From a virus (Duplodnaviria > Heunggongvirae > Uroviricota > Caudoviricetes): a stretch of DNA of 15,321 nucleotides. The position numbers and the translations under genes were made by a program. The stretch lies in IMG/VR virus record IMGVR_UViG_2684622670_000006, one strand, 5' to 3'. Below, piece by piece: positions 784-15,321 of the stretch; position 1 is the stretch's first letter; every line of letters starts with the position of its first letter. The notes beneath the pieces are model-generated. The model did not search any database. It was given only the letters and a program-made list of their open reading frames with translations, and had not been told where the DNA came from.

Positions 784-3305
784 CGTCCACCTCCGGAGAA
801 CAGGCCACCATCACGCATCTGTGCCTGGATTTCATCACGGGCACCCTTGCGGGCCATGTCATACACCGCCTTCATCATCTGTGGACCTGGCAGACCATTC
901 GTACCGTCGTTATTAATCACCACGTTGTTGTTCTGCTCAAACCTGATACCCTCTGAACGCCGCATTTGCGCCGGACTTCCGGTGCCACCGACATAACCAC
1001 CGGTGGCATAGCCGCGCATCAGCCGGTAGAGATTCCCCACGCCAATCCGGCTGGTTGCCTCCTTCGTGAAGACAAATTCACCACGGTGGACAATCCCCGC
1101 TGGCTCATATTTGCCGCCGGTCCCCGTAAAACCTCCGGTCGCAAAATGGAATTTCGCCGCAGCAGCCTGAATGGCTGTACCGCCTGACGCTGATGCGCCG
1201 CCACCAACAGCTCCGCCAATGGCGCTGCCGATACTCCCGACAATCCCCACCATTGCCTGCTTAAGCAGAATTTCTGTCATCATGGACAGCACGGAACGGG
1301 TGAAGCTGCGCCAGTTCTGCTCACTGCCGGTCAGCATCGCCGCCATATTCTGCGCAATACCATCAAAGGTCTGCGTGGCAGCACTTTTAACCTGCGACAT
1401 ACTGTCCGTGGCACTCTCTTTCCACTCGCTCCAGCCGGACTTCAGGCCAGCCATCCAGCTCCCGTTAAGCTGGTCTTCAGCCGCCCAGGTCTTTTTCTGT
1501 TCTGACAGGACGTTATTCAGCGCCAGCGTATTATCGCCATACTGTTCCTTCAGGCGCTGTTCAGTGGCTTCCCGCGCTGCCTGACGGTCTGTCATCCCCC
1601 GGTTTTTCGCATCAATGGCAGCCCGTTTTGCCCGTTGTTGCTGTGCGAATTTATCCGCCTGCTGCGCCAGTGTATTCAGGCGTTTCTGATGTTCGACCTT
1701 ATCGCCTAACTCCGCCAGTTGTCGTTTGTACTCCAGCGTCTCCTCTTTATGTACCAGCAGGGATTTCTCCTGTGCGGACAGCTGGCGACGTTGTGCTGCC
1801 TCCTCCAGTACTGCGAACTGATTTTCCGCTTTCCACAAATCCCGGCGCTGCTGGCTGATTTTCTCATTCGCTCCGGCATGCTTCTCCAGCGTCCGGAGTT
1901 CTGCCTGAAGCGTCAGCAGGGCAGCATGAGCACTGTCTTCCTGACGATCGCCCGCAGACACCTTCACGCCGGACTGTTTCGGCTTTTTCAGCGTCGCTTC
2001 ATAGTCTTTCAGTGCCTTGTTCAGTTCTTCCTGACGGGCGGTATATTTCTCCAGCGGCGTCTGCAGACGTTCGTAAGCCTTCTGCGCCTCTTCGGTATAT
2101 TTCAGCCGTGATGCCTCAGACTCAGCACGATCTTTTGCTGCCATCTCACTGGCCTTTTCAAGATCTGCCTGCAATGTGGCGGCTGAAAGACCAAGTTGCG
2201 CATTCGCCCTGTCCTCCCATGCGCCACGGAGATTGGCAAGAAATGCTGAGGTTTTACCACGCCGGTGGCTCCGGCTCTGATACCACTGCCATTTCTTGTC
2301 CGCTTCATCAAAAGCCTTTTCTGCTTTCTCCAGCATTTCCCGGGCAGTGTCCGGGCGACCAATATCCAGCACCGAATCCCACATGGATTTAAATGCCCGT
2401 GCTGTCTTGTCTGCCCAGGTCTCCAGCGTGCCCATGTTATCTTTCAGGCGGCGGGTCTGGTCATCAAACCCTTTCGTTGCGGCCTCGTTCGCCGCCTGCA
2501 ATGCCCCGGCTTCATCGCCGGAACGCTGCAACTGAGCAACATACGCAATCTGCTCCGCTGTCACGTTATGGAACTGGCGCGCCATCGCCGTCAGCCCCGA
2601 CGTCGGGTCTGTGGTCAGCTTCCCGAAGGCTTCAGCAACCTTGTCCACCTCCACGCCCGATGCAGAGGAGAAACGCGCCACACTCTGGCTGATCGCCTCA
2701 AACTGCTCACCACCACGCACACCGGCATTCACCAGCGCCGTCAGTGATTCGCTGGTCTGGTTAAACGTCAGCCCTGCCGCCTGCCCGGCTCTGGACAGGA
2801 CCAGCATACGATCTGCCGTTAGTCCTGCCTGATTACCGGAAAGGACCAGCGTTTTGTTGAAATCGGACAGGGTTGAGTCACCCTGATACCAGGCATACAC
2901 CAGCGCACTGGTTGCCACCGCCAGCGAGGTGACCCCGACCATTGGCAGGGTGACTGCACCGGCAAGCCCCCTGAACATGGGGATCATCCCGCCGAAGGAG
3001 TCCTTAACCTGACCGCCCTGTTGCAGCAGAATCAGCCAGGGATTCTGCCCCCCTGCAAGCTGTGTGGCCACGTCGGTGAACTGTGCAGGCAGCATACGCA
3101 TGGCGGCTTTATACTGCCCGACGGAAATCCCCGCTTTCTGTGCAGCCAGCGCCTGCCGGTTCATCGACTGCTCAACAACTGCCGCTGTTTTTTTCGCATC
3201 ACTTTCCGTACCGGAAAAATGACGCCTGACTCTGGCCATCTGCTCGTCAAATCTGGCTGCATCCAGACTTAAATCAACGACCAGATCGCCTACCGGTTCA
3301 GCCAT
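780..3305 (-). CDS. H: Tail tape measure protein H (lambda gpH-like, 841 aa)
   Basis: 841-aa ORF starting MAEPVGDLVVDLSLDAARFDEQMARVRRHF and ending ...GARDEIQAQMRDGGLFSGGGR, with the Gly-rich hydrophobic segment typical of gpH. Position between G-T and M fits lambda order; the central region is diverged and slightly shorter than lambda H. Confidence 0.95.
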   Translation of the reverse strand: MAEPVGDLVVDLSLDAARFDEQMARVRRHFSGTESDAKKTAAVVEQSMNRQALAAQKAGISVGQYKAAMRMLPAQFTDVATQLAGGQNPWLILLQQGGQVKDSFGGMIPMFRGLAGAVTLPMVGVTSLAVATSALVYAWYQGDSTLSDFNKTLVLSGNQAGLTADRMLVLSRAGQAAGLTFNQTSESLTALVNAGVRGGEQFEAISQSVARFSSASGVEVDKVAEAFGKLTTDPTSGLTAMARQFHNVTAEQIAYVAQLQRSGDEAGALQAANEAATKGFDDQTRRLKDNMGTLETWADKTARAFKSMWDSVLDIGRPDTAREMLEKAEKAFDEADKKWQWYQSRSHRRGKTSAFLANLRGAWEDRANAQLGLSAATLQADLEKASEMAAKDRAESEASRLKYTEEAQKAYERLQTPLEKYTARQEELNKALKDYEATLKKPKQSGVKVSAGDRQEDSAHAALLTLQAELRTLEKHAGANEKISQQRRDLWKAENQFAVLEEAAQRRQLSAQEKSLLVHKEETLEYKRQLAELGDKVEHQKRLNTLAQQADKFAQQQRAKRAAIDAKNRGMTDRQAAREATEQRLKEQYGDNTLALNNVLSEQKKTWAAEDQLNGSWMAGLKSGWSEWKESATDSMSQVKSAATQTFDGIAQNMAAMLTGSEQNWRSFTRSVLSMMTEILLKQAMVGIVGSIGSAIGGAVGGGASASGGTAIQAAAAKFHFATGGFTGTGGKYEPAGIVHRGEFVFTKEATSRIGVGNLYRLMRGYATGGYVGGTGSPAQMRRSEGIRFEQNNNVVINNDGTNGLPGPQMMKAVYDMARKGARDEIQAQMRDGGLFSGGGR

Positions 3306-4127
3306 ACCGGACTCCTCCTGCGATCCCTTCTGATACTGTCATCAGCATTGCGTCATCCTCCGTCATGTCCGGGGAAGCGGGGATAACTTCATTCCCGTCC
3401 GGACCAAAACGAACACCTCCGGCAAGCCCTGCCGCTTTCTGCATCAGCACATCATCTTCAGGCTCTTCGTCAGCCCCGCGCCGGTTCAGCAGACTGAAAT
3501 CCAGCGGATGCATATCCGGATCGCTGAAAAACAGGCTGAGCACGGTGTACGTCAGCCCGGAAAAGTGCATATCCAGCAGAACATCATGAAAATAATGGGT
3601 ACTGTAAAAACGGTGCCAGTCGGCATACTCCGTGGATGACATCCCGGCAAGCATGGCACGCCAGTCGGGTCGCCCCATCTCACGCGCCAGTTTCAGGGCA
3701 AAACTCAGCTCACCGTCGAACACTTTCCCGCAGAAACAGGCTCTGCAGGCCCGGCGTCCTCTGCCTGTTCAGGGGCATCATTCACCACAAACTCATACAT
3801 ACCGGACAGCCGGTACACCACGTTTTCAGCATGAGAAATCGCCTCTGTGGGCCAGGTGGTGAGCACCTCCTGCTCAATCTGTTTAACGGCTTCATTCATG
3901 GACGGCATCTGCGTCTTCTTCGGATGGTTATGCCACAGGGACATCGCCACCACAAAAGCACCGGTTCTGATGACGTCTTCCACAGTAAACTTCCGGTTAC
4001 TGTCTGACTCCGCCTGTTCTGCCTGCCGTTTCATCAGGGCGAGATGCTCAATGCGCTGCAGGGCTGACAGTTCAGAAAGCGTGACGGTCACGCCGTTATG
4101 TTCAAATGATTCGGTTTTCAGAAACAT
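3298..4127 (-). CDS. T: Tail assembly chaperone G-T fusion, made by programmed -1 ribosomal frameshift (G frame 4127 to about 3723, then T frame to 3298)
   Basis: The G frame contains the heptamer G GGA AAG (plus-strand ctttccc at 3723-3729) a few codons before its stop. The -1 frame continues open as VFDGELSFALKLAREMGRPDWRAMLAG..., which is the 3298-3723 ORF in the track. This is the lambda G/G-T arrangement. Confidence 0.8.
3705..4127 (-). CDS. G: Tail assembly chaperone G (lambda gpG-like, 140 aa)
   Basis: ORF-track protein MFLKTESFEHNGVTVTLSELSALQRIEHLALMKRQAEQAESD...SAGKCSTVS matches lambda gpG. ATG at 4127 is preceded by GGAGAG. Confidence 0.95.
   Translation of the reverse strand: MFLKTESFEHNGVTVTLSELSALQRIEHLALMKRQAEQAESDSNRKFTVEDVIRTGAFVVAMSLWHNHPKKTQMPSMNEAVKQIEQEVLTTWPTEAISHAENVVYRLSGMYEFVVNDAPEQAEDAGPAEPVSAGKCSTVS
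3723..3729 (-). promoter_or_regulatory. Slippery heptamer GGGAAAG for the G to G-T -1 frameshift
   Basis: Minus-strand gcG GGA AAG tgt in the G frame; it sits where the G and T reading frames overlap. Confidence 0.75.
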
Positions 4128-4142
4128 CGCTGACTCTCCGGA

Positions 4143-4883
4143 TTAACTGGCGGTGACGTTGATTTCTGCAACAGCAGCAAACTCACCATTACCTGATACA
4201 ACCGGAATGTTGACCTTACCTGCAGCAATGCCCTTCACGGTGATGGTCATACCACTGACCGACACGGTGGCTTTTGTTTTATCCGCAGACACCGCACGGA
4301 AGCTCTTGTCGGTTGCGCCTTCCGGCTGGAATGCCACGGTCAGCGTGGTGCTCTGCCCTTTCACTACGGAAGCACTGGCGGGTGTCACCGTCATGCCGGT
4401 TGCCGCCGTCACCGTGCTGCGATCTTCTGCCATTGACGGACGGCCCACATTGGTGACCTTCACCGTGCGGGTGATCGCTTCCTTCGCCGTTACTGCCTTA
4501 CCGATACTGCTGACCCAGCCGCGGAACACATCGACCGTGCCGTTCGGGAAGCGGATTTTATAGGCACGGTTATCACCTTCATTAAACCACGCAAGCAGCG
4601 CCTGCTGCCCCTGCTCTCCGGGCATCCACGCCAGCGTGAAGCTGGTATCTCCGGCGGATTTCTGCCCCTGTCCGGTCGCGGTCCAGTCCGCATCTTCATC
4701 ATCGAGATAACTGTCGTCACAGGACTCAGCGGTCAGTTCGCCGGGCGTCAGGTCTTTAACTTTAGCCAGACGCGACCAGTCAACGTCTGAAAGCGGGTTC
4801 GCATAAGGGTCACCGTTCCCCTTATAAACCCACAGTGTGGTCCCGGCACCTTTCACCGGCATTGTAGGATTTGGTACAGGCAT
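4143..4883 (-). CDS. V: Major tail tube protein V (lambda gpV-like, 246 aa) with C-terminal Ig-like domain
   Basis: Track ORF 4143-4913 contains [22 protein letters not shown]... from an internal ATG at 4883, which matches the lambda gpV N-terminus and has GAGGA 5 nt upstream. The upstream extension [10 protein letters not shown] overlaps the end of U and is not supported. Confidence 0.9.
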
Positions 4884-4890
4884 ATCGTCC

Positions 4891-5171
4891 TCACATTTCA
4901 TAGGTAATGACATAAGTCAGATCGGCTGAACTCCACAGGCCCGCATCATCGTCGCGCCGGTAGTCATAGCCACTGGCCACCATACTGGTGATCAAATCTG
5001 ACAGTGCCGGGATATCGCTCATCACCGGATAAATCCGGGACTCCATCCACAGGCAACTGCCGGAAAATCCGCCTCATCAAAAACAGCGGGGCGACCATCA
5101 AAAAACGTCGCCCCGGTGTCATGCTTCTCCAGTGCATCCAGTACGGCTGCACGGAGTTCAGTATGTTTCAT
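4891..5171 (-). pseudogene. U: Tail terminator U (lambda gpU-like), disrupted by an internal deletion of about 115 bp with frameshift
   Basis: From the ATG at 5171 the frame reads MKHTELRAAVLDALEKHDTGATFFDGRPAVFDEADFPAVA then CGWSPGFIR-stop. A different frame reads [52 protein letters not shown]-stop, with the stop at 4891-4893. Both ends match lambda gpU but about 39 central residues are absent, and the span is 281 nt, which is not a multiple of 3. Confidence 0.8.
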
Positions 5172-5746
5172 CGCTTTATTACCATCCTCAGCTGATGCTG
5201 CAGCGCATAGCCCAGCTCTTTCGGAAGACGCTCACGCCGTATCCGTTCAATATTCTGTTTAAACGCCGTGGTCAGCGGCACCGCCATCGGAATTTTCACC
5301 ACATCAATGGGGTAACGGTTTTTCCCGGCCACACGCTGCATGACATGCCACCGGCCATTTTTCAGTTGCTGAATAAACGCGCCGGGAATACGACGGTTTC
5401 CCACCACAAGCACGCTGCCGCCACCTTTCAGGGATGAACGCTGCCCCTTTTTACGACGCCTGCGGCGGGACAGGACAACCCGCGCATTCCCCAGCCTGAT
5501 TACGGGCAAATCCCCCCGGTTAACTTTGATTCTGGCCTGCGGATTTTTGACCGTGGCCCTTTTCAGCCTGGCCCTTTCCTTTACCAGTTTCCGGCGTACC
5601 TTTGTCTCACGGGCAACCTGTGATGAAGACTGATTAATCGCCGTTGTAGCCACGCGGTTAATGGCCATTGCGGCGGCACCAGGCACCGCCGTTTTGCTGA
5701 TACGGCTGAGGTTTTCAACGGCCTGCTCAAGACCCTGTATGGCCAT
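5168..5746 (-). CDS. Z: Tail completion protein Z (lambda gpZ-like, 192 aa)
   Basis: MAIQGLEQAVENLSRISKTAVPGAAAMAINRV... from the ATG at 5746, preceded by AGGGGGA. The longer track ORF (start 5812) adds 22 residues absent from lambda Z. Stop overlaps the U start (ATGA, 5168-5171). Confidence 0.9.
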   Translation of the reverse strand: MAIQGLEQAVENLSRISKTAVPGAAAMAINRVATTAINQSSSQVARETKVRRKLVKERARLKRATVKNPQARIKVNRGDLPVIRLGNARVVLSRRRRRKKGQRSSLKGGGSVLVVGNRRIPGAFIQQLKNGRWHVMQRVAGKNRYPIDVVKIPMAVPLTTAFKQNIERIRRERLPKELGYALQHQLRMVIKR

Positions 5747-5757
5747 ATATCCCCCTT

Positions 5758-6111
5758 TCAGCGACGACGGCTGGCGGCAGGTGGTTGCCCCCGGTTGAGC
5801 CAGAGATAACAACTCCCTCCGTCATCCGGAGAAACACGATCCACCCAGAATATCTCGCCGTTAATGGTCAGCGTGTCACCACGCCGTACAGCACAAACCG
5901 TATCCGTAAGCACAAATAATGACGGGTTGCTTCCTTCAATACGGATCCCACTACTGGCAAAACCCAGCGACTCCGGATCGTCAAAAACGCCATGAACCTC
6001 GCCGCCACGCTGTGCACCGGAGGTGAACTGCGCACTGATGCCCATCACTTCAACAATCGTACTGTCCACCCCGGCAAGGGCGGCATCAAAGGCATTCTGA
6101 AAATCACGCAT
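5758..6111 (-). CDS. FII: Head-tail connector / head completion protein FII (lambda gpFII-like)
   Basis: Protein from the third in-frame Met reads MRDFQNAFDAALAGVDSTIVEVMG...FWVDRVSPDDGGSCYLWLNRGQPPAASRRR, aligning with lambda FII. The N-terminal half is diverged and the C-terminal part is close. Start choice among three in-frame ATGs (6147, 6129, 6111) is uncertain. Confidence 0.8.
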   Translation of the reverse strand: MRDFQNAFDAALAGVDSTIVEVMGISAQFTSGAQRGGEVHGVFDDPESLGFASSGIRIEGSNPSLFVLTDTVCAVRRGDTLTINGEIFWVDRVSPDDGGSCYLWLNRGQPPAASRRR

Positions 6112-6478
6112 AAACAGCCATTCCGCCATCAACGTGTGTTTTTGCATCTGAGGACATAATCAGAATCACCCGACCAACATCCGCAAGCTCAACGGATTCC
6201 CCCGTTTCACCATCAATGCCACAGAGATGGAGGCAGGTCAGAACTCTGATGCGCGTTAACGCGCCGGATGTTTCCTCACGAACATCATGAGCCGCGGTTT
6301 CCTGCTCCCGGATATCCATATTCATAACCTGTACATCATCGCCGGATGACTGCATTTCCTCTTCCCATTCCGCCACCCGCTGCGCTATCTCTGCGGCACT
6401 CCCGGATATATCCGGCTCACGCCCCAGAATCAGGGCCAGTTCATCAAGCCGTTTCAGATTTTGCTCTTTCGTTGCCAT
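6104..6478 (-). CDS. FI: DNA-packaging protein FI-like (125 aa)
   Basis: Sits between E and FII as in lambda, with an acidic N-terminal half (MATKEQNLKRLDELALILGRE...) and FI-like C-terminal region. ATG at 6478 is preceded by CAGGGGGCTGAT. Sequence is diverged from lambda FI. Confidence 0.7.
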   Translation of the reverse strand: MATKEQNLKRLDELALILGREPDISGSAAEIAQRVAEWEEEMQSSGDDVQVMNMDIREQETAAHDVREETSGALTRIRVLTCLHLCGIDGETGESVELADVGRVILIMSSDAKTHVDGGMAVYA

Positions 6479-6492
6479 ATCAGCCCCCTGTG

Positions 6493-6521
6493 AAAAAAGA
6501 CACGGGGGCATTTCGCCCCCG
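6493..6521 (-). terminator. Terminator-like GC stem-loop plus U-tract in the E-FI intergenic region, overlapping an alternative hairpin that contains the FI ribosome-binding site
   Basis: Minus strand: CGGGGGC-GAAAU-GCCCCCG (7-bp GC stem, plus coordinates 6503-6521) followed by UGUCUUUUUU (6493-6502). The 3' arm GCCCCCG can instead pair with CAGGGGG (FI Shine-Dalgarno, about 6483-6492). Confidence 0.4.
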
Positions 6522-6529
6522 CTCACGGA

Positions 6530-7558
6530 TTATTTCACCTGTACCACCACAAACTCATCCGGGTCCGGCAACACCATCAGCGGCGCGGACTGCGTCATGG
6601 TAAATTCACGGGCGGGATCCCCCACCGTCAGCCAGTGTTTCGGATAACGGGAAGAGGCCACCACACCTTCGGACAACGCCTGAGCATCCTGAATGGCACC
6701 GTAACAACGGATCCCATCTGCAGCAGTATTCCCCAGAACCAGCATGCCATCTGGAAGATAACGTTTTTCGATACCGTCTTCTGCTATATAAGACGTTTTC
6801 GCCACCACAATGGCCAGATCGCCGTAATACCCCTTGAAGGACACCACTGCGCCCAGATCTTTCACTGCCGTTTCGAGTTGAGAATTTGAACCGCGACGGG
6901 TATCCAGTTTTTCGCGGAACAGCTTAAAACCATTCAGAAGACGCCAGACGGTACCGTCCATAATGGCAATATTCACAAGACCGCTGGCCTGGTCGCAGTA
7001 GAGGTCAATATCATGTGTAGGATCGAACGTGTCACGATCCTGTTTTGACCACTCCTTACCACTACCCTGAGTGATGTTATTCTTCGTCGACCTGCCAAAA
7101 TCGACCTCAATTTTCTCGAACTGGTCTCCTTCCATAGTGTATTTGCCATACAACACAGCATTTACCGCCTGCATTTCTTCCACCTGGACAATCGCGTGCT
7201 CTTCCTGTTTGAGGTTATCGGTAATGATACGCAGACGGCGGTAAGCCGGATCATTCAGTTGAGATGGATCTTCACCAGGAAGGCGCTCAACCGCCTGCTG
7301 GTAATTAAATTCGTGTTTCGGCTTGACGTAGCCCGGACGCAACACGCGGGTTTCACCACCACGATGACGCAGCACTTTTCCTTCAACAACCGGGGAGACA
7401 TAGGCCGCCACCGGCGTTTTTCCGGTAATTTTGTCCAGCATCACCTCTTCGGTATGGAAATTCACCGTACGGCGGAAAAACAGCTCCAGAAACAGCGCAC
7501 GAAATTTAACTTTTTGTTCGGTATAACCGAGTAACTGGCGGGTCGTAAACAATCCCAT
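6530..7558 (-). CDS. E: Major capsid protein E (lambda gpE family, 342 aa)
   Basis: 342-aa ORF collinear with lambda gpE, with conserved blocks (YVSPVVEG, PGYVKPKHE, EEMQAVNAVLYGKYTM, KLDTRRGSNS, TVGDPAREFTMTQSAPLM) but substantially diverged. ATG at 7558 is preceded by AAAGGAA. Confidence 0.9.
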   Translation of the reverse strand: MGLFTTRQLLGYTEQKVKFRALFLELFFRRTVNFHTEEVMLDKITGKTPVAAYVSPVVEGKVLRHRGGETRVLRPGYVKPKHEFNYQQAVERLPGEDPSQLNDPAYRRLRIITDNLKQEEHAIVQVEEMQAVNAVLYGKYTMEGDQFEKIEVDFGRSTKNNITQGSGKEWSKQDRDTFDPTHDIDLYCDQASGLVNIAIMDGTVWRLLNGFKLFREKLDTRRGSNSQLETAVKDLGAVVSFKGYYGDLAIVVAKTSYIAEDGIEKRYLPDGMLVLGNTAADGIRCYGAIQDAQALSEGVVASSRYPKHWLTVGDPAREFTMTQSAPLMVLPDPDEFVVVQVK

Positions 7559-7586
7559 AAATCAGTTCCTTTCATTCAGAAATCAG

Positions 7587-7608
7587 TCAGGCCACCGCGG
7601 TGGCCTGA
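7587..7608 (-). repeat. Perfect 22-bp palindrome (tcaggccaccgcggtggcctga) in the D-E intergenic region; probable RNA hairpin
   Basis: Exact inverted repeat in the plus-strand sequence between the D stop (7616) and E start (7558). No strong U-tract follows on the coding strand. Confidence 0.6.
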
Positions 7609-7615
7609 TAACGTG

Positions 7616-7963
7616 TTACGGCAGCGCCGCGTGACTCAGGGCACTGCCAGCAAAGGCGTTGGCCTTTTTGTGTTCATCCACACTTTCAGGCCAGTGGATT
7701 GCCTCCGTCGCAAAGGTTCCCGACTTGTAATACGTCAGCGCCGTCTCTGTGCCTTCAAGCGGCAGTACCAGTATGCCAACCGCACTACCGGCTTTCTGTC
7801 CGTCCCAGACCACCAGTTTCCCGGTGGCTTCATCCAGCATCAGGGGCGTCAGTGCCGGTGTTGGCGAGGAAATCCCGCTGCTGCCTGTGGCGGTATGAGC
7901 CGGATCATTACCGGCAAAAATACGTACTTCCGCACGCTGTTCAGTGATGGTTTTCGTCACCAT
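7616..7963 (-). CDS. D: Head decoration protein D (lambda gpD family, 115 aa)
   Basis: Contains gpD-like motifs (DPAHTATG, TPLMLD, KLVVWDG, AVGILV, YKSGTF, AFAGSA) and lies between C/Nu3 and E. ATG at 7963 is preceded by AGGAGA. Confidence 0.9.
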   Translation of the reverse strand: MVTKTITEQRAEVRIFAGNDPAHTATGSSGISSPTPALTPLMLDEATGKLVVWDGQKAGSAVGILVLPLEGTETALTYYKSGTFATEAIHWPESVDEHKKANAFAGSALSHAALP

Positions 7964-7999
7964 ATTGTAAAAATCTCCTATTGATGGTCAGCACTGGCT

Positions 8000-8602
8000 T
8001 CATGGCATGGCCATGAGCATTTTCACGTCCGCATCACCGTCTGCTGACGTCTGTGGCACGCCACCCTGTACCGCTGCCGGTGAATGGTTCGCCATGAAAT
8101 GTTCAAACATGGCGGTTGTGGATGCAGAGACCGGTTCTGCCTTACCTGATCCCGCAGCCAGCACAGCCCGGGCGCTCTCCACAGTCATTCCCAGGCAGGC
8201 AGCCAGCTGTTCAGCCTGCGCCTCAGCCCCTTTTGCCTCATCCAGTGCCATGATCTGATCACGGAGTGAGGGTCCGGCATCCGCCTGCGGTGAAGCAGCC
8301 AGGATCGGGCGGGCTTTTTCCACCGTCATCTCCGGCATCGCCGCCAGCGTTGCCGCCAGTTGTTCACGACCTTTCGCTTCTTCACACGCCATAATGCGAT
8401 CGGCTTCACTCTGCGCGGGTACCACCGGCTGCTGTGGTGCCGCCACGGCCAGAATCGCCCGGGCCTGTTCAACGCTCATGCCCTGTTGTCCTGCCAGCAT
8501 CGTGGCAAGCTGTTCACGTCCTTTCGCTTCCTGGCATGTCAGGATCCCCATAACTCGCTGGTTCTCCTGCGCGGCGGCTTCCGTTGCAGTTAATTGCGGC
8601 AT
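8000..8602 (-). CDS. Nu3: Scaffolding protein Nu3-like, nested in-frame in the 3' part of C (internal start)
   Basis: In-frame ATG at 8602 (MPQLTATEAAAQENQRVMGILTCQEAKGREQ...) with a strong Shine-Dalgarno (AGAGGAGG) inside the C coding sequence. This mirrors the lambda C/Nu3 nested arrangement. Confidence 0.65.
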   Translation of the reverse strand: MPQLTATEAAAQENQRVMGILTCQEAKGREQLATMLAGQQGMSVEQARAILAVAAPQQPVVPAQSEADRIMACEEAKGREQLAATLAAMPEMTVEKARPILAASPQADAGPSLRDQIMALDEAKGAEAQAEQLAACLGMTVESARAVLAAGSGKAEPVSASTTAMFEHFMANHSPAAVQGGVPQTSADGDADVKMLMAMP

Positions 8603-9505
8603 AGTGCCTCCTCTGACATTACTGTTCAGCGCCGTGGCCATCACACTGATGGCATCCGACGCATTGACTAATTCATCCGCCAGCCCGGCATCAATGCCGG
8701 ACTGACCTTCAAAAACGGCGGCCTCTGTTCCCGTGACGGCATCAACAGACAGGCCGGTAAACATCGCCACTTTTTCGGCAAACATCCGGCGCGCCGCATC
8801 AATCCGCTGCTGCATGTCCTGGCGAACCTCTGCCGGCAACGCTTCAAACTGATTGCCATCCACCTTGTGCGCCCCTGAGTAAATCAGCGTGATATCCACA
8901 CCGGCCTGCGCCAGATGACCGGCATAGCTGACATGGCTCATCATCACGCCAATGGAGCCGATACGGGATGTCTGGGTAACCAGCCGTCGGGAGCAGGCCG
9001 ACGCCAGCAGCATGGCTGCAGAACAGGCCGTGTCATTGCACAGTGCCCAGACCGGCTTCTGCTGACGGAGGCGGTAAATCATGTCAGCGCAGTCAAACGC
9101 TCCGGCGGCCTGCCCGCCCGGACTGTCAATGTCCAGCAGTACGCCCCGCACCTGGCTATCCGCCATTGCCTGCTGAAGACAGGCGACAATGCCGTCATAG
9201 CCTGTCATTCCGGAAAATGGCCGCATACCACCCAGCCGGTGCACCAGCGTGCCGGTCACCGGCAGTACAGCAATACCGTTCACCACCCGGTAAACACGGG
9301 CCGGTCGTTTACCTCCGGCCATATACTCGTCCGTTTCAGCCAGCATTCCGGGAGCATCAAGCTGTACCTGTTGTTGTGGTACCGAAAGACTTGCTGCCCC
9401 CATCTCGCGCCCGAGCGCGCAAAAGAAAACCCGCGCATAGGCGGGCTCCAGAAGCAGCGGTTCATTGAATGCTGCGGCAATAATGTGTGAAAGATTACGT
9501 CTCAC
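8000..9505 (-). CDS. C: Prohead protease / minor capsid protein C (lambda gpC-like, ClpP/S49-type), 501 aa
   Basis: N-terminal region matches lambda gpC motifs (AFNEPLLLEPAYARVFFCAL, GMTGYDGI, KPVWALCNDTACSAA, SRRLVTQTSRIGSIGVMMSH, ITLIYSGAHKVDGN). The track start at 9505 is a GTG codon, with GAGGAG upstream. The C-terminal part carries three tandem copies of a roughly 48-aa repeat. Confidence 0.9.
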   Translation of the reverse strand: MRRNLSHIIAAAFNEPLLLEPAYARVFFCALGREMGAASLSVPQQQVQLDAPGMLAETDEYMAGGKRPARVYRVVNGIAVLPVTGTLVHRLGGMRPFSGMTGYDGIVACLQQAMADSQVRGVLLDIDSPGGQAAGAFDCADMIYRLRQQKPVWALCNDTACSAAMLLASACSRRLVTQTSRIGSIGVMMSHVSYAGHLAQAGVDITLIYSGAHKVDGNQFEALPAEVRQDMQQRIDAARRMFAEKVAMFTGLSVDAVTGTEAAVFEGQSGIDAGLADELVNASDAISVMATALNSNVRGGTMPQLTATEAAAQENQRVMGILTCQEAKGREQLATMLAGQQGMSVEQARAILAVAAPQQPVVPAQSEADRIMACEEAKGREQLAATLAAMPEMTVEKARPILAASPQADAGPSLRDQIMALDEAKGAEAQAEQLAACLGMTVESARAVLAAGSGKAEPVSASTTAMFEHFMANHSPAAVQGGVPQTSADGDADVKMLMAMP

Positions 9506-9713
9506 GTGGTGTTGTCTCCTCTTCCGGCCTGCGACTCTCCGCTATCTGCTGCTGATACGCCTGCGCTATCCACACCGGACGTGAGAGTCCGGCTTTTTCC
9601 CGCTCTGCAGATTCCCTGACCTGCTGGCGGAAAATGTCCTGATAATCCTCGCCCATCAGCGCCAGCTCTTTCTCATACGTGCTCAGTCCGGCCTCAATGC
9701 GCATCACTGATTC
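9495..9713 (-). pseudogene. B: In-frame continuation of the portal gene downstream of the amber codon (portal C-terminal about 72 codons)
   Basis: Same frame as B. Translation ESVMRIEAGLSTYEKELALMGEDYQDIFRQQVRESAEREKAGLSRP... matches the lambda gpB C-terminus (MLIEAGLSTYEKE...QEIFAQQVRE...). Confidence 0.75.
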
Positions 9714-11087
9714 CTAGACTTCCTTGAGCCCATCAATGGTCATTCTTCCGGCTCCAATCCACTCTGCCCGTGACCAGGCTGATCGCGCCTGATAAAAATC
9801 AAAACGTGCCCGTGGCGGACGAATAATCCCCCGAAGAAGTGCCTCTTCCAGCCAGCAGGAAAACATCTGCGTGGCCAGCCGGGCCGCAATAAATTTTCGC
9901 CGCCCCATAAAATAGCGCCACGACTCATTGGCGGAGGCGCGGGCACTTGAGTAACTGACCTTCGAGTAATCACGGGACAACTGTTCGTAGGAAACGCCAA
10001 GACCGGCGGCGATATACCGCAGCAACGCCTGTTCAAGCGCAGAAAATCCATTGTCTGAATCCTGCGCAGTCTGTAGTTTCAGATCATCACCAGGGAAAAG
10101 GTGCGGAATTTTGACACCGCCCAGTGTCACGTTATTCGTGTCATACCAGCTGGAGAACTTCTCCAGAATATTAATAAGCGGATTATCCTTCTGCTCCTGT
10201 GGCGCGCCGGCGATATATTCAAAGGCCTTTTCGGTATCAAGTTCACTTTCAATCGTCGCTGCATACATCGCCTTCACTATGGCCGACTGAAGCTGTGTTG
10301 CCTGCAGGGAATCGAGCATCTTCAGCCGTTCCATGACGCTGTAAAACTGATTAGCCCCACGAGTCTGCCCGTCCTCCACCGGCTCGAAAATATGCAGCAT
10401 GGCCGGACGCCCGGTGGCAAGTTCACGCGGGATCCGTTCCCATCGTCCACTACCAGAGAACGGAAAATCATCCTCACAGATATGGTACGCAACGGCACGG
10501 CCATATCGATCGACCTCCACACCGGCCCGCAGAAAGCGGTTCCCCATACCGTGTCCTGGCGTGTCCACCCGTTTCGGACTCACGGCTTTAAAACGCGTAC
10601 GAAATAACTGCGTGGTTTCCGTATCCCAGACCGGCTGCACAAAGATTTCGCCGTTAAACGCATGAACGCCCACACCTTCACGGATAAATTCCGTAAATGT
10701 GCGTTTTCCTTCCACGTCGATCTCGCCAAACATCCCTTCTGCGTATTCCGACCAGGCCGCCTCCACCTCATCGACAAAGCTTTTTGCTGCGGTCTCCCGC
10801 ATCCCCAGCCAGCGCCAGTTCGGACGGTAGCTGATCAGAAACATATGCCCGACAATGTGATCCTTATGCAGGGCCACCGCATTAGCCGCTATTCCGTTAT
10901 TGCGCACCAGATCATCTGCCCGGGCATTCCCCAGACGCAACGCGGGCAGCAGGGCCGCATCGACACTCTGCGCCGGTGGCAACCACTCCGCCATTTGCCC
11001 GCCAAATCCTGCGCCGCCCCCGTTGTAGCTGAGACTCTCACGAAGCGGAACGCCGTTCACATCAATCAGGACAGGCGTTCGTTTCAT
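9714..11087 (-). CDS. B: Portal protein B (lambda gpB-like), ending prematurely at an in-frame amber codon (457 aa as encoded)
   Basis: 457-aa ORF collinear with lambda gpB (e.g. GANQFYSVMERLKMLDSLQATQLQSAIVKAMYAATIESELDT, LLRYIAAGLGVSYEQLSR). It ends ...GRMTIDGLKEV followed by TAG at 9714-9716, where lambda continues with Gln. Confidence 0.9.
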   Translation of the reverse strand: MKRTPVLIDVNGVPLRESLSYNGGGAGFGGQMAEWLPPAQSVDAALLPALRLGNARADDLVRNNGIAANAVALHKDHIVGHMFLISYRPNWRWLGMRETAAKSFVDEVEAAWSEYAEGMFGEIDVEGKRTFTEFIREGVGVHAFNGEIFVQPVWDTETTQLFRTRFKAVSPKRVDTPGHGMGNRFLRAGVEVDRYGRAVAYHICEDDFPFSGSGRWERIPRELATGRPAMLHIFEPVEDGQTRGANQFYSVMERLKMLDSLQATQLQSAIVKAMYAATIESELDTEKAFEYIAGAPQEQKDNPLINILEKFSSWYDTNNVTLGGVKIPHLFPGDDLKLQTAQDSDNGFSALEQALLRYIAAGLGVSYEQLSRDYSKVSYSSARASANESWRYFMGRRKFIAARLATQMFSCWLEEALLRGIIRPPRARFDFYQARSAWSRAEWIGAGRMTIDGLKEV

Positions 11088-11290
11088 AACCTCACTCCCA
11101 GCGGACGACGGCGACGTCGGGTTGTCCCCAGTACCGACTCCGCATCATTGATCGCCCGGTTAAGCTCATCCAGAGAAGCCGCCGTATATTCAATTCTGCG
11201 ACCATCTTTCTGGACAGACACCACCCGTTTACCGGTTAATAAATCAAGGCGCGCCTGACGCAGCGCCTGCAGTTCAGCGACTGTAACCAT
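11084..11290 (-). CDS. W: Head completion / head-tail joining protein W (lambda gpW-like, 68 aa)
   Basis: MVTVAELQALRQARLDLLTGKRVVSVQKDGRRIEYTAASL... aligns with lambda gpW (TGKRVATVQKDGRRVEFTA). ATG at 11290 is preceded by GGAGGAG. Stop overlaps the B start (ATGA). Confidence 0.9.
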   Translation of the reverse strand: MVTVAELQALRQARLDLLTGKRVVSVQKDGRRIEYTAASLDELNRAINDAESVLGTTRRRRRPLGVRL

Positions 11291-13203
11291 TCACTCCTCC
11301 GGACAGCTTCGCTGCCAGTTCTTTCAGGGTTGGCCGGGTCGTCTCTATCTTCCCGGGATTTTGCCAGTACAGCCAGATCAAGCTGCCAGCGTTGCACGGA
11401 CACACGTAATGCCGCGTAGGCATACACCAGGCAGTCCAGCGCTTCGTTACGCCGCTTTTTGTTATCCCACAGCAGACGCATCTTTCCTTTTTCCCACTTC
11501 TCCACAAGCTCTTCCGCGACCAGTTGCTGCGCCTCTGCCTGCGAAAAAATCTCCGGATCATCAGGAAAACGGATGGCATACGACGTGGATTCATCCGCAG
11601 GCGTGGGAGCGGCTTTCATACGGGCATAGAGAATTTCTTTTGCGGTGTCTGTCCCCACTTCACACAGATACACGCCCCGCTGATTGCGGGTTTTTGGCAT
11701 GGTGATCACCGGCTTACCATAGACAGATGCGCCTTTTACCGGCAGCACCCGGAAAACACCGTGTTTTTTTGACCTCTGATAAACGATTTCGCCATCGATC
11801 CCCCCGATGTCCCAGCAGACACGGGAAATGGTCATTTCGGTTCCGTCTGCATGGCGGTATTTTTTGTTGATCGCCGCATCCACACGTAACAGCGTCTCTT
11901 CCTCATCGGGACGTCCCATAATGATGATTTTATCCACCAGAAAGGCTTCCTCTCCCGGAGCCCATCCCCAGACATACATCTCAAAACGGTTTCGCTGCGA
12001 GTCAATGCCCGCCGTCAGATAAACCACCCGGGCTGGCACCGCCGCCGTGTAATGCACAACCTTATCCATCAGTACCTGGTGATCGAGTTTTTCGCCCACG
12101 GCCTCTTCCCAGGTCTCGCCCAGCGTGGTGTTAACAAAAGTTTTCAGACCGTTGGGATCTTTCAGTGCATCCAGCCAGTCATAGACAATCTGTACCCAGG
12201 TGGTGAACGGACTGTACGCCGTCCAGATATGGAAAGTGATGGAGCGCGGCGGCGGAATTTCATCCCCCCGGGCGCTGAAAAACATCAGGCCGTCACGGGT
12301 CCACATGCTCGTGTTTTCACAGATCCACCGCCCGTTACTCTGGTCAAGCTCAGACTGATGGATCACACAGCCATGATGCTCACAAAGGTAGAAAACACTT
12401 TCTGGCTTATTCTTCTCCCACTTAAGACCGAAAGGCGAGGCATCATCGCCAAATTTCAGATACTGCGCCTCCCCACAGTGCGGACAGGGCACGTAAAAAC
12501 GCATGAAATGTGCCGACTCGTTAGCGGCTTTTTCGATCTGGCAGGAGCCTTTGATTTTAGGCGTCGAGCCGCGAATGGATTTTGGCCATACAGAGCCCTC
12601 AATACGTTTATCCCCCAGCAGGGTTGGCGACCCCTCTTTTTCAACATCCGGTTCGAACGAGGAAAGCTCGTCATAACAGACCACATCCACGGATTTTTCA
12701 CGGTAGTTTTTGGCGGCAGCGCCGCCCAGGCACCAGAAGCCCACACCCGATGAAAAGCGTTTCAGCGTGAGAGTATTGTCACGATGTTTACGACCCAGCC
12801 ATGGGGAAAGGTCTTTCAGGCATGGCACGTCCCGAATCGTCGCCTCCACGTGAGACTTCATAAAATCTTCAGCGGCAGAATCCGTGGGCTGAAAAAGCAG
12901 ACTGTTTCGGGATTTATGCTCAATAAAATACCCGACCACCCCCAGCAACATCTTTGTATAGCCAACACGGGCAGATTTAATCAGATTAACAGTGCGGATC
13001 TGATCATTCCCCATACTGTTCATGATGGCGATCTGGAATGGCAGCGTTTTCCATTCGCCGTCACCGTATGAGGATTCTTTAGGCAGATAATAATTTTGAT
13101 CAGCCCATTCAACTGCCGTCATCGGTACAACCCTGACCAGAGGCTGCAGCGCAACCGAAACGGCAGCCATCATATTATTCAGTTGTTGCTCTGATATATT
13201 CAT
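11236..13203 (-). CDS. A: Terminase large subunit A (lambda gpA-like); 3' end probably frameshifted
   Basis: From the ATG at 13203 (MNISEQQLNN...TAVEWADQNYYLPKES...), collinear with lambda gpA including Walker/ATPase and nuclease regions. The last ~30 codons of the listed frame are Arg/Cys-rich and overlap W by 55 nt. A lambda-like C-terminus (TLKELAAKLSGG...) is in the +1 frame, ending at 11274. Confidence 0.85.
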   Translation of the reverse strand: MNISEQQLNNMMAAVSVALQPLVRVVPMTAVEWADQNYYLPKESSYGDGEWKTLPFQIAIMNSMGNDQIRTVNLIKSARVGYTKMLLGVVGYFIEHKSRNSLLFQPTDSAAEDFMKSHVEATIRDVPCLKDLSPWLGRKHRDNTLTLKRFSSGVGFWCLGGAAAKNYREKSVDVVCYDELSSFEPDVEKEGSPTLLGDKRIEGSVWPKSIRGSTPKIKGSCQIEKAANESAHFMRFYVPCPHCGEAQYLKFGDDASPFGLKWEKNKPESVFYLCEHHGCVIHQSELDQSNGRWICENTSMWTRDGLMFFSARGDEIPPPRSITFHIWTAYSPFTTWVQIVYDWLDALKDPNGLKTFVNTTLGETWEEAVGEKLDHQVLMDKVVHYTAAVPARVVYLTAGIDSQRNRFEMYVWGWAPGEEAFLVDKIIIMGRPDEEETLLRVDAAINKKYRHADGTEMTISRVCWDIGGIDGEIVYQRSKKHGVFRVLPVKGASVYGKPVITMPKTRNQRGVYLCEVGTDTAKEILYARMKAAPTPADESTSYAIRFPDDPEIFSQAEAQQLVAEELVEKWEKGKMRLLWDNKKRRNEALDCLVYAYAALRVSVQRWQLDLAVLAKSREDRDDPANPERTGSEAVRRSEWLQSLNCRRCVRRALIY

Positions 13204-13684
13204 CGAGTAAATCCGGTAATTTATCCCCTGCCCGCGCACACTGATTTGCCCCCTTCGCAATAAGGGTTTTCAGATGGTCAAGATGGCGCGGTGTTAAATC
13301 AGGAAACTGTCGCTGCATGGATAAAGGGATGGAATCAAGCGTACTGGATAACGCCATTGCCAGCTTACTGAGGGCAAAAATACAGAATCCGGTGTCAATA
13401 AGCTTTCCTTCGGACGCCTGATTTTTTAATTGCTGGGCGATTGCCTGTTCTTCGATCAACTTCCATCTGGCAATGAGTAACTTTTCTTCATAGTCGTCTT
13501 CGCTATCGCCATCAGGCACATCGTTTTTACTTCTCCTCAGATACGATATGTAAAAATCACGCCAGGCATCCAGATCCAGTTGTCCTCGCTTATTCGAGAC
13601 CGGAGCACCCGGCAATTTCTGCAATCTGCGAAGCTGGCGATCGGTCAGACTCAAATGCCTGGCAACTTCAGTCTGCGTAGCCAC
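13175..13684 (-). CDS. Nu1: Terminase small subunit Nu1-like (169 aa) with a non-lambda N-terminal HTH domain
   Basis: C-terminal half resembles lambda Nu1 (FCIFALSKLA...SIPLSMQRQFPDL..RHLDHLK...LPDLLDEYI). The N-terminal about 60 aa (ATQTEVARHLSLTDRQLRRLQ...) is unlike lambda. Start is a GTG at 13684 with GAGGT 5 nt upstream. It sits next to cos and overlaps the A start as in lambda. Confidence 0.85.
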   Translation of the reverse strand: MATQTEVARHLSLTDRQLRRLQKLPGAPVSNKRGQLDLDAWRDFYISYLRRSKNDVPDGDSEDDYEEKLLIARWKLIEEQAIAQQLKNQASEGKLIDTGFCIFALSKLAMALSSTLDSIPLSMQRQFPDLTPRHLDHLKTLIAKGANQCARAGDKLPDLLDEYIRATTE

Positions 13685-13731
13685 TCCTCACCTCGCAAAA
13701 ACTCTTACCTCACAATCAGCACAAAACCGGT

Positions 13732-13830
13732 CATGTCCGGTTTATATGTCTATTTTTTGCGCATGTCCGGTTCACGGAAAACCTGTTTTTATATTTTTTA
13801 TGTAGTTAACTTGCAGAGAAACCGGACATG
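13732..13830 (-). repeat. cosB-like region: three copies of a 9-bp element CATGTCCGG (two direct, one inverted) flanking an AT-rich spacer; putative small-terminase binding sites and IHF site
   Basis: catgtccgg at 13732-13740 and 13762-13770, and ccggacatg at 13822-13830. The AT-rich stretch at 13771-13821 lies between the second and third copies. The layout parallels lambda cosB (R3-I1-R2-R1) between cosN and Nu1. Confidence 0.5.
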
Positions 13831-13867
13831 GTTCCCGGAAAATTTTCATAAATAGCGAAAAACCGCG

Positions 13868-13879
13868 AGGTCGCCGCCC
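13868..13879 (-). other. cosN: the 12-nt cohesive-end sequence (minus strand GGGCGGCGACCT), with lambda-like flanking cosQ-side sequence up to about 13910
   Basis: Minus strand reads ...CGATCCGACAGGCTACG GGGCGGCGACCT CGCGGTTTTTCGCTATTTATGAAAATTTTCCGG..., almost base-for-base the lambda right-end/left-end junction as recalled. Confidence 0.8.
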
Positions 13880-14183
13880 CGTAGCCTGTCGGATCGCCGG
13901 AAAGGACCCGTTGGCCGTTCTGCTCTACTTCGTAATGGGATTTAATAGCTGAACGACAAAAGTCGTGCGAACACAGTCACACAGACCTGAATACACGTCC
14001 TGTTTCTTCCACCCCCGCACAGGACTGGCGAGCATGAGGGACAACCCCGCGAATCATTAGCGTGGTAAAAACCCGGTGTGCATCGTTTTTGATTATTCCC
14101 GCACACTCGCGCAGAAGGAATTCCCCGTCGGGCTACGGTCATGGTTAATGCGGGAATACAGCGACGATGCAGCGCAAGATATG

Positions 14184-14738
14184 TCAGGCCTGAATACCTT
14201 TATCGAATCCCGGTAATAAAAACTGTCCCTGTCTCTCCAGACGTTCCAGCTTTGCAAGCAATTGAGGTTTTTTCGTTCTCCCCCAGCGATTGAGCAGACG
14301 GCCTGACATGCTGGCGACATCCTTCTCTTTCATGTACTCCAGCATTACGGCATTTCTCTCTTCTTCAAATTGACGATGGCCAACCTGAAGCATGGCGTAC
14401 ATCCAGTTAAATGCGTTGATATAAGCAATTTTGATACGCATTGCTTCTTTTTTGGTGTAGGACATAACCAAAAGCATCAACCCATCCTTACGTAGCCGAT
14501 AGAATTTTTGTGGCTTACCATTCTGTAACTCATTGTTTTTATAGCAAACCTCAAAATTGAGTTTTGTATCAAACTCTTCAGGACAAGCAGCGATAGTTCT
14601 TTCTACATCACGCACAACGTTGTCATGTCGCTTACGAAATGCTTTCGCCACCATAAATGAATCGGTGACAGGGTCATTGTTGGTAATAAAAACCAGTTCT
14701 TTGAAATCAATGCCGTCAACGATAGTTGGATAATTCAT
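14184..14738 (-). CDS. Rha-family phage regulatory protein (184 aa), a moron between the lysis cassette and cos
   Basis: N-terminal Rha-domain motifs (DSFMVAKAFRKRHDNVVRDVER, LNFE, DGLMLLVMSYTKKEAMRIKIAYINAFN). The region is visibly more AT-rich than the flanking structural genes. No lambda counterpart at this position. Confidence 0.8.
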   Translation of the reverse strand: MNYPTIVDGIDFKELVFITNNDPVTDSFMVAKAFRKRHDNVVRDVERTIAACPEEFDTKLNFEVCYKNNELQNGKPQKFYRLRKDGLMLLVMSYTKKEAMRIKIAYINAFNWMYAMLQVGHRQFEEERNAVMLEYMKEKDVASMSGRLLNRWGRTKKPQLLAKLERLERQGQFLLPGFDKGIQA

Positions 14739-14951: not shown

Positions 14952-15321
14952 TTATTTTAAGCACTGCATCCTGATGTATTCCTGCAACGTCCTTAATGCG
15001 GCTTGATCACTGATGATTCCATCTCTGATACCGAGAACGTTTCGTCCAGCAACTGGAGAGAGTTCGACGGTGGCATCATTGCCCATGCCGGAGGCGCTGG
15101 AGGTTTTGGCTGAGGATGGCACAGGACATTTGCCTTTGACGAGCACCCGACCACCATTATTAAGCTTGCGCCGAAGAGCATCATTTTCAGCTTTCGCATC
15201 AGCTAATTCCTTCGTGTATTTAGCATCGAGTGCAGCAACATCACGCTGACGCACCTGCATGTCAGTAATTGTCGCGTTCGCCAGTTTCAGCTCTCTGGCA
15301 TTTTTGTCGCGCTGCTCTTTG
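14952..15321 (-). CDS. Rz: Inner-membrane spanin Rz (lambda Rz-like), C-terminal part; 5' end beyond the window
   Basis: Translation ...[51 protein letters not shown]... matches lambda Rz. The frame is open to the window edge. Confidence 0.9.
14993..15199 (-). CDS. Rz1: Outer-membrane spanin Rz1 (lipoprotein), embedded in the +1 frame of Rz
   Basis: [22 protein letters not shown]... has a lipobox (VVGC) followed by a Pro-rich stretch ([11 protein letters not shown]), like lambda Rz1. It lies entirely inside Rz. Confidence 0.8.

Follow-up and report, generated by a model that had tools for sequence, protein, structure and literature searches.

The prophage pool of E. coli O157 Sakai comprises defective lambdoid prophages of a pathogenic E. 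coli, near-complete elements with a few point lesions or insertion sequences in their morphogenesis genes, several related prophages with common modules being found in one genome. Phage 21 (OL657228.1; Escherichia; Jouyvirus) has the gene order Nu1-A-W-B-C/Nu3-D-E-FI-FII-Z-U-V-G-T-H-M-L. The DNA analysed here shares this gene order, and resembles the Sakai prophages in being near-complete with few lesions, but is known from its sequence alone.

The window, i.e. the whole stretch of 15,321 nucleotides that was analysed, is the entire contig BBVP01000036.1, whose minus strand encodes the head and tail proteins of a phage-21-like prophage. The contig probably belongs to an Illumina/Platanus draft of E. 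albertii, as BBVQ01 and BBVT01, which adjoin it in accession number, come from the E. albertii draft set sequenced on MiSeq and assembled with Platanus (Ooka et al. 2015). Host flank is absent from the window, and a near-identical copy sits within the 4.77-Mb chromosome CP117654.1. Judged by its gene content, the window is the late-gene half (packaging, head, tail) of a lambdoid prophage whose head module is of the phage 21 type, because it has 96-98 % nucleotide identity and full synteny with phage 21, the expected Pfam families (Phage_Nu1, GpA_ATPase, GpA_nuclease, Phage_portal_2 and Phage_tail_U) and an exact cosN. The 16 proteins of phage 21 (Nu1 to L) align collinearly in tblastn, in the canonical lambdoid order. 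Over positions 5052-13121 the nucleotide identity with phage 21 is 97.6 %, and the head gene products from W to Z share 97-100 % of their residues with it. Phage 21 differs in Nu1 (only 40 % identity), in the central cassette of H and, as the divergence of Nu1 suggests, probably in cosB specificity. It also has CAG at codon 458 of B, A without an extra base and a full-length U. The cosN lies upstream of Nu1, with Rha on its other side, and the Rha protein is identical to its counterparts in the related prophages L006, L012, L013 and L015. Neither tRNA genes nor Rfam matches were found in the window, and a suppressor tRNA or a structured RNA is thus unsupported. The features are the following.

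2-454, minus strand: tail gene L, open, cut off at the contig end
457-783, minus strand: tail gene M, open
780-3305, minus strand: tail gene H, open
3298-3723, minus strand: tail gene T, open
3705-4127, minus strand: tail gene G, open
3723-3729, minus strand: G/T slippery heptamer
4143-4883, minus strand: tail gene V, open
4891-5171, minus strand: remnant of the tail terminator gene U (tblastn, nucleotide alignment)
5168-5746, minus strand: Z, intact
5758-6111, minus strand: FII, intact
6104-6478, minus strand: FI, intact
6530-7558, minus strand: E, intact
7616-7963, minus strand: D-like decoration gene, intact
8000-9505, minus strand: C/Nu3, intact
9495-11087, minus strand: pseudogene of B (portal, 530 codons; tblastn alignment to phage 21)
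9712-9716, minus strand: CTAGG in place of an earlier Dcm site CCAGG, through C>T at the inner, presumably methylated cytosine
11084-11290, minus strand: head-tail joining gene W, intact; the extended A frame runs over its 5' end
11236-13203, minus strand: A (large terminase), frameshifted by one additional nt at 11347 (alignment, Pfam)
13175-13684, minus strand: small terminase gene Nu1, 169 aa, intact (tblastn, Pfam)
13868-13879, minus strand: cosN cohesive-end sequence GGGCGGCGACCT, 12 nt (exact match)
14184-14738, minus strand: Rha-family regulator, intact
14952-15321, minus strand: 3' part of the Rz/Rz1 spanin genes, intact, reaching the contig end

Three genes for particle formation carry inactivating mutations, namely the amber Q458* in B, a +1 frameshift in A and a net 115-nt deletion in U. 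The other 13 (Nu1, W, C/Nu3, D, E, FI, FII, Z, V, G, T, H and M) are full length and free of stops compared with phage 21 or with L006, an intact E. albertii sister prophage. The initial annotation, which had claimed lesions in B and U, a possible 3' frameshift in A and otherwise intact genes, was thus right on each of these points. The best overall explanation, to which we assign a probability of about 0.8, is that a once-functional phage became defective very recently through ordinary, unselected mutation, the A and B lesions being inherited.

The phage 21 portal was aligned by tblastn over residues 1-530 in a single frame (window 11087-9498) that is interrupted by one stop. Codon 458, which is CAG in phage 21, PhiR57_1 and L006, reads TAG at 9714-9716, the mutated base being 9716. 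The amber leaves a 457-aa product without the crown domain and the C-terminal tail, and the 69/70-aa "gene" called at 9495-9707 is the rest of B, read in the same frame. The crown comprises residues 453-511 of lambda gpB (domain map, PMC10721106), and this region is strongly conserved between the present portal and lambda gpB (PDB 8k38). As far as lambda biology applies, the B amber alone should stop DNA packaging.

In A, residues 6-619 and 620-642 of the phage 21 protein were aligned by tblastn in different frames. Owing to the extra base at window position 11347, which turns GAAG into GATAG in the coding sense, 36 unrelated, out-of-frame residues stand in place of the last 23, and the stop is shifted from 11274 to 11236, within gene W; the ATPase and nuclease domains are left intact. 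The C terminus of lambda TerL has been described as a portal-binding tether (PMC9026076), and by the same analogy with lambda the A frameshift should likewise be sufficient to stop packaging.

In U, residues 1-41 (5171-5049) and 80-131 (5049-4894) align in different frames. A loss of 116 nt, together with a 1-nt T filler at window 5050-5052, takes out residues 42-79 and shifts the frame. The lost residues include, by lambda gpU numbering, the E-loop 45-58, which is the gpV attachment site in lambda (PMC10721106), and the deletion, if real, would also abolish phage growth. By the genetics and structures of lambda, we infer that phage function was lost through these lesions.

The A and B lesions were found in three other assemblies. 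The prophage in the complete genome CP117654.1 (GCA_028622515.1; a 4.77-Mb Escherichia chromosome) has both the GATAG insertion in A and the TAG in B; its alignment with the window spans 10,270 nt with a single mismatch and without gaps, and its gene table lists neither an A nor a B gene. Both lesions are also present base for base in a third assembly, JAQAKX010000056.1, and in the Logan contig DRR017161_178, an independent assembly of run DRR017161 with 100 % identity over 9,355 nt. Because the two recur base for base in other assemblies, they are not assembly errors. That all three lesions are sequencing or assembly errors in an intact prophage is suggested by the record being a draft short-read assembly, but given this recurrence, and since both sites lie outside homopolymers, such a reading is hardly credible. 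The error-prone assembly proposed in the initial annotation therefore does not account for A and B, and keeps its force for the U deletion, which is private to BBVP01000036.1 and lies in a repeated tail block. The comparison with related strains which it recommended divides the lesions in the same way, those in A and B being shared with CP117654.1 and JAQAKX010000056.1 and that in U being absent from CP117654.1. Programmed readthrough or frameshifting was rejected because phage 21, PhiR57_1, L006 and L010 have CAG and no extra base, and because the amber alleles are absent from 50,697 phage records; the genuine G/T slippery site lies elsewhere, at 3723-3729. A laboratory amber mutant was also rejected, as the source is a draft of a natural isolate and other natural isolates carry the allele. 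A probe for the A insertion had no match among 5,426 E. coli genomes.

The prophage in CP117654.1 differs from the window in having an intact U (131 aa), an H of 853 aa with a different cassette and an additional S366P in B, and it carries IS110-family and IS66-family insertions in its tail-tip region, beyond the reach of the window. The H gene of the window has a mosaic central cassette and a private in-frame 54-nt deletion near 2003-2009. The block from Z to H, within which the U and H deletions lie, recurs nearly unchanged in E. albertii prophages whose heads are of another type. The U deletion may have occurred very recently in this strain, or it may be an artefact of assembly. Its junction has only 3 nt of imperfect microhomology and the 1-nt filler, which is unusual for a slippage deletion. 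A probe for the junction had no match in the 5,426 E. coli genomes, the junction pattern was not found in GTDB species representatives, and neither the 49-aa U fragment nor the 841-aa H was on record in an exact-protein look-up. Exact matches of the 51-aa ORF from the C-terminal part of U were obtained in unrelated assemblies with fragmented gene calls, and are uninformative on the deletion.

Only the A and B lesions would be genuine if the U deletion and the private H deletion had arisen in the Platanus short-read assembly, by bubble merging, scaffolding or gap closing, in a tail module that the strain has in two or more prophages. CP117654.1 has neither deletion and, up to the H cassette, is otherwise only one substitution away, and the L006-type cassette inside an otherwise CP117654.1-like contig suggests a chimeric path. 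The Logan contig ends in Z, before U, about 30-50 nt into a block that prophages with a lambda-type head have in identical form, and JAQAKX010000056.1 ends in Z as well. The filler at the U junction and the likely pipeline, Platanus on 250-300 bp Nextera fragments, point in the same direction, and if CP117654.1 is the same strain resequenced, its intact U would argue for an artefact. However, junction k-mers without a counterpart in the reads are seldom created in De Bruijn contigs, the contig contains no N bases, neither deletion is flanked by a long repeat that could explain a collapse, and genuine strain-specific deletions are expected in a prophage that is already dead. We consider the artefact a serious possibility, with a chance somewhat below even.

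The recent loss of function is seen in the divergence from L006, to which the window is 99.90 % identical, the head module differing by 9 substitutions and 1 indel in 10.27 kb. Two inactivating changes on this short branch are a high number, even when one of them is counted as a hotspot event. The remaining coding substitutions among five sequences, lesions aside, are 8 synonymous and 4 missense. The 99.9 % identity to an intact E. albertii prophage and the mostly synonymous substitutions thus indicate that the phage was functional until recently, and the initial proposal of early decay in a recently functional lambdoid prophage is borne out by this identity and by that to phage 21.

Amber hotspots of the type CCAGG>CTAGG are reportedly known from lacI of E. 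coli through the work of Coulondre and Miller. The amber in B has the same form, since the context of codon 458 has changed from GTCCAGGAA to GTCTAGGAA, a C>T at the inner C of a CCWGG site. It probably arose by deamination of a Dcm-methylated cytosine, methylation of the site being presumed. Dcm would methylate the inner cytosine of CCAGG in B, deamination of the 5-methylcytosine would give thymine, and a product which evaded Vsr repair would leave CTAGG with an in-frame TAG (background on Dcm and Vsr in PMC2715241). An intact 472-aa dcm (97 % amino acid identity to that of K-12), followed by vsr, is present in the E. albertii type strain NBRC 107761, which was used in place of the strain of the window. 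Of the 18 substitutions, two are at Dcm hot positions, of which there are 42 among 10,269 (P = 0.0025). The identical Q458* arose independently in E. coli, where 28 genomes have it on another backbone of the phage 21 type. Of the positions in A, B, C and E that could give an amber, 6 of the 10 at Dcm sites were hit in the 5,426 E. coli genomes, compared with 2 of the 108 at non-Dcm sites (Fisher P = 1.7e-6); in the control amber probes, random spacers checked to be free of wild-type 28-mers were placed between the probes. As in the classical hotspots, an inner-cytosine C>T in CCAGG gives an in-frame TAG, the same site recurs across independent lineages and the excess over non-Dcm sites is strong. 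Unlike the lacI reporter, the case here is one of natural polymorphism in prophage structural genes at a presumed methylated site.

Both inherited lesions strike the portal and the large terminase, the proteins that are sensed by Avs-type defence systems, and it may be asked whether they represent selected domestication, truncated portals being favoured as a dominant-negative decoy against superinfecting relatives or for evading portal- or terminase-sensing immunity, with the other genes kept for host benefit. Three near-identical E. albertii prophages have three different B ambers (W438*, Q458* and Q509*), and three further events are seen in E. coli (Q458*, W412* and Q513*). All six lie at or beyond codon 412, in a region that is home to 13 of the 36 at-risk amber codons (P = 0.002), and the probability that at least 3 of 18 substitutions are B nonsense changes is 1e-4 to 9e-3, depending on the assumed hotspot weight. 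However, Dcm hotspot changes make up three of the six amber events, Q509* and Q513* cut only the tail that is disordered in lambda gpB (PMC10721106) and may be neutral, and the Dcm ambers in E. coli also strike C (at least 3 positions), A and E. The tests on B were chosen post hoc, loss of the portal does not save an induced cell, and damage is also present in U and in the tail-tip genes of the prophage in CP117654.1. We regard domestication as very improbable. The suggestion in the initial annotation that tail genes, Rha and the spanins are retained for host benefit found no support, as U is itself a damaged tail gene and the prophage in CP117654.1 bears its IS elements in tail-tip genes; Rha and the lysis genes are unchanged because the divergence is too recent. 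The wider claim that portal truncations in the last quarter of B, as in the six ambers, are recurrently favoured in phage-21-type prophages of both E. coli and E. albertii is likewise very improbable. If it were true, the favoured product could be a crown-less portal that poisons the head assembly of superinfecting relatives, or the gain could be the silencing of a protein sensed by host immunity, and the Dcm site would merely be the source of the mutation.

Complementation between prophages is documented in E. coli O157, and the present prophage could conceivably still give transducing or infectious particles through amber suppression or with proteins supplied in trans by co-resident prophages. 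Its cosN and Nu1 are intact, and the strain probably has a second prophage with the common Z-U tail block, from which U could be supplied. Portal and terminase would, however, have to come from the same head type, and no sign of a second phage-21-type head module was seen; the window is without a tRNA gene, the flank of the sister prophage has only tRNA-Gly(TCC), and none of the amber alleles occurs among 50,697 phage records. Continued particle production is accordingly quite unlikely.

The preferred reading remains recent decay of a functional phage by unselected mutation. The element is a case of ordinary recent prophage decay, and the current understanding of prophage decay is unchanged by these results. 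In annotation, the 457-aa "portal", the 69-aa ORF, the 655-aa "terminase" and the two U fragments are to be read as pieces of pseudogenes. The tail half of such short-read contigs crosses a multi-copy module, so private indels there need confirmation at the level of reads. Dcm sites that set CAG or TGG in frame are predictable first failure points of Escherichia prophage genes, and the same amber can therefore arise independently across lineages and is not to be taken as a sign of common ancestry.

The window corresponds, in reversed orientation, to contig BBVP01000036.1 (assembly GCA_001514785.1) in its full length. The adjoining prefixes BBVQ01 and BBVT01 belong to draft genomes of Escherichia albertii from the collection of Ooka et al. 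2015, for which Nextera libraries, Illumina MiSeq and Platanus 1.1.4 assembly were used (PMC4700944). The window is probably also from E. albertii, an assignment which is probable rather than proven because only these neighbouring prefixes, and not BBVP01 itself, were found in the literature. All genes are on the minus strand and are arranged as in phage 21 (OL657228.1), whose packaging, head and tail genes are collinear with them; nucleotide identity to this phage is 97.6 % over window 5052-13121. The gene order is:

Start of the gene order, minus strand: Rz/Rz1 (partial), then Rha
13868-13879, minus strand: cosN, exact GGGCGGCGACCT
Downstream of cosN, minus strand: Nu1 (small terminase), A (large terminase), W (head-tail joining), B (portal), C/Nu3, D, E, FI, FII
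After FII, minus strand: Z, U (tail terminator), V, G, T, H (tape measure), M, L (L partial)

The cosN has the lambda/21 sequence, whereas Nu1 (13175-13684) has only 40 % identity with phage 21 Nu1, so that the two small terminases differ in type. A is 93 % identical to phage 21 A and divergent at its extreme N-terminus. The pattern suggests that 13175-13684 and 13685-14183 form a module, for small terminase and cosB specificity, that has been swapped.

The initial annotation had described an amber codon in B, a frameshifting deletion in U and a possible 3' frameshift in A among otherwise intact genes. Alignment with the phage 21 proteins located all three in the deposited sequence, and the genes other than A, B and U are all open and full length. 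B aligned with the phage 21 portal in a single frame over residues 1-530, the sole disruption being codon 458, which is TAG (9714-9716) and in relatives CAG (Q458*). An ORF of 69/70 amino acids in the public gene call (9495-9707, minus strand) is the in-frame C-terminal rest of B past the amber. In A, residues 6-619 and residues 620-642 aligned in successive frames, the cause being one extra base at window 11347 (GAAG to GATAG on the coding strand), which replaces the final 23 residues with 36 unrelated ones and shifts the stop from 11274 to 11236, within W. At window 5050-5052, 116 nt of U are missing and a single extra T joins the two sides, which removes residues 42-79 and shifts the frame. 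Neither the A nor the B lesion lies in a homopolymer. Unlike these lesions, the conserved GGGAAAG heptamer at 3723-3729 (minus strand), 18-24 nt ahead of the G stop codon, is a genuine recoding signal, the -1 programmed frameshift site yielding gpGT.

Assembly error had been proposed as an alternative to decay. The A and B lesions are not assembly errors, since three other assemblies agree. For run DRR017161, the Logan assembly has a 9,355-nt contig that matches the window at 100 % identity, A and B lesions included. The prophage in the complete genome CP117654.1, which is either from a separate isolate or from the same strain resequenced, differs by 1 mismatch and 0 gaps over 10,270 nt and has the same inserted base in A and the same TAG in B, with no A or B gene called there. 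Both lesions are also present in a third assembly, JAQAKX010000056.1. Only the U deletion is left in question, the gene being intact in CP117654.1 (131 amino acids).

Both the Logan contig and JAQAKX010000056.1 end inside Z, ahead of U. From Z onward the window hardly differs from the tail block of other Escherichia prophages, whose head is of a different, lambda type (1 mismatch between Z and the U junction). The Logan contig ends about 30-50 nt into this shared block, which is to be expected if two genomic copies run together there in a de Bruijn graph. Given this match and the breaks within Z, window 1-5700 (Z to L), the tail half, is probably multi-copy in the strain, and its connection to the contig's head half is uncertain. 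H (780-3305, minus strand) codes for 841 amino acids, compared with 853 or 859 in relatives, and has an in-frame 54-nt deletion private to the window (junction near 2003-2009) with loss of 18 amino acids (KDGKILQADYNTLMAAAK). Its central cassette is of the type found in L006, an E. albertii sister prophage, within an otherwise CP117654.1-like contig, the result of either true mosaicism or a chimeric path in the assembly. No long repeat flanks the U or the H deletion, and the U junction carries a 1-nt filler. That the U deletion, which is private to the window, is an assembly artefact has a considerable probability, a little short of even.

The mutated base of B codon 458 is the inner C of a Dcm site (GTCCAGGAA to GTCTAGGAA). 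The T:G mismatch that arises when 5-methylcytosine is deaminated is normally repaired by Vsr (PMC2715241). In the E. albertii type strain dcm is intact (97 % amino acid identity to K-12) and is followed by vsr. Methylation of the inner C by Dcm, its deamination and escape of the T:G mismatch from Vsr repair would yield the CTAGG at this codon. In E. coli lacI, amber hotspots classically stem from such deamination at Dcm sites. A comparison of the head module in five near-identical copies gave 18 substitutions, all of them transitions; 2 of these lie at Dcm hot positions, of which there are 42 in 10,269 (P = 0.0025).

When 5,426 complete E. coli genomes were screened with 45-nt probes able to seed on the mutant base only, the identical Q458* was found in 28, on a phage-21-type backbone with 24 nt of B unlike the E. 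albertii allele. B is annotated there with an 'internal stop', and the remaining head module is intact. Further Dcm-derived ambers in E. coli were at C Q118, Q229 and Q325, E Q125 and A Q376. Amber positions were matched for 6 of 10 Dcm probes and for 2 of the 108 non-Dcm CAG>TAG and TGG>TAG probes used as control (Fisher P = 1.7e-6; 5,426 genomes). B Q458* is a textbook case of an amber at a Dcm hotspot. Neither the A insertion nor the U junction was present in any of the 5,426 E. coli genomes searched, which fits unique, non-hotspot events.

Two further E. albertii copies, each about 99.9 % identical in the head module, have different B ambers (B at 4660-6252 of both loci): W438* in CP117590.1 and Q509* in CP117650.1, of which only W438* lies at a Dcm site. 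The CP117590.1 prophage also has frameshifts in H and K. E. coli prophages that share this head type (NZ_AP022171.1, NZ_CP196251.1, NZ_CM147701.1) also have portal ambers, namely Q458* in the 28 genomes above, Q513* in 3 and W412* in 4, apparently one clone; the Q513* portal is annotated as a normal 512-amino-acid CDS. Selection for recurrent portal ambers has a low probability, although all six independent B ambers of the two species lie at codon 412 or later, where 13 of the 36 at-risk codons are found (P = 0.002), and three B nonsense changes among 18 substitutions have a P of 1e-4 to 9e-3, by hotspot weight. However, these tests were chosen after the data were seen, three of the six ambers are Dcm-hotspot changes, and Q509* and Q513*, which cost the portal just the tail that in lambda gpB is disordered, may be neutral; most of the pattern can be explained without selection. 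No amber alleles were found in 50,697 phage records, and no suppressor tRNA in the window or the flanks of its relatives; a tRNA-Gly(TCC) gene upstream of the holin in a sister prophage (L102 24-98) is not a suppressor tRNA.

Lambda gpB consists of wing, stem, clip and crown (453-511) domains, the last 20 residues being disordered (PMC10721106). As the portal is strongly conserved with gpB (PDB 8k38) across residues 412-505, the Q458* product would lack essentially the whole crown. A keeps its ATPase and nuclease domains unaltered, and the frameshift is predicted to swap out the tail equivalent to the C-terminus of lambda TerL, described as a portal-docking tether (PMC9026076, citing Yeo and Feiss 1995). 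Either lesion alone should stop packaging. The U deletion would take out the E-loop, to which gpV attaches in gpU (PMC10721106), and the frameshift the remainder of the protein; if real, it would block the completion of tails, except where U is provided by another prophage.

The decay reading is supported by the intact L006, 99.90 % identical over the head module, and by substitutions that are mostly synonymous apart from the lesions. The 15 coding substitutions among the five sequences (8 synonymous, 4 missense, 3 nonsense) fit purifying selection until shortly before the lesions, and six substitutions and the A insertion are common to the window and CP117654.1. In the latter, the tail-tip genes beyond the window end show further decay, with an IS110-family insertion between L and K and one of the IS66 family within I (16290-20579 of locus L015). 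Retention of the tail genes, Rha and the spanins for host benefit, as had been speculated, found no support. The window is a recently inactivated phage-21-like prophage, its A and B lesions real and inherited and the third, in U, unverified, and such prophage inactivation is an ordinary finding.
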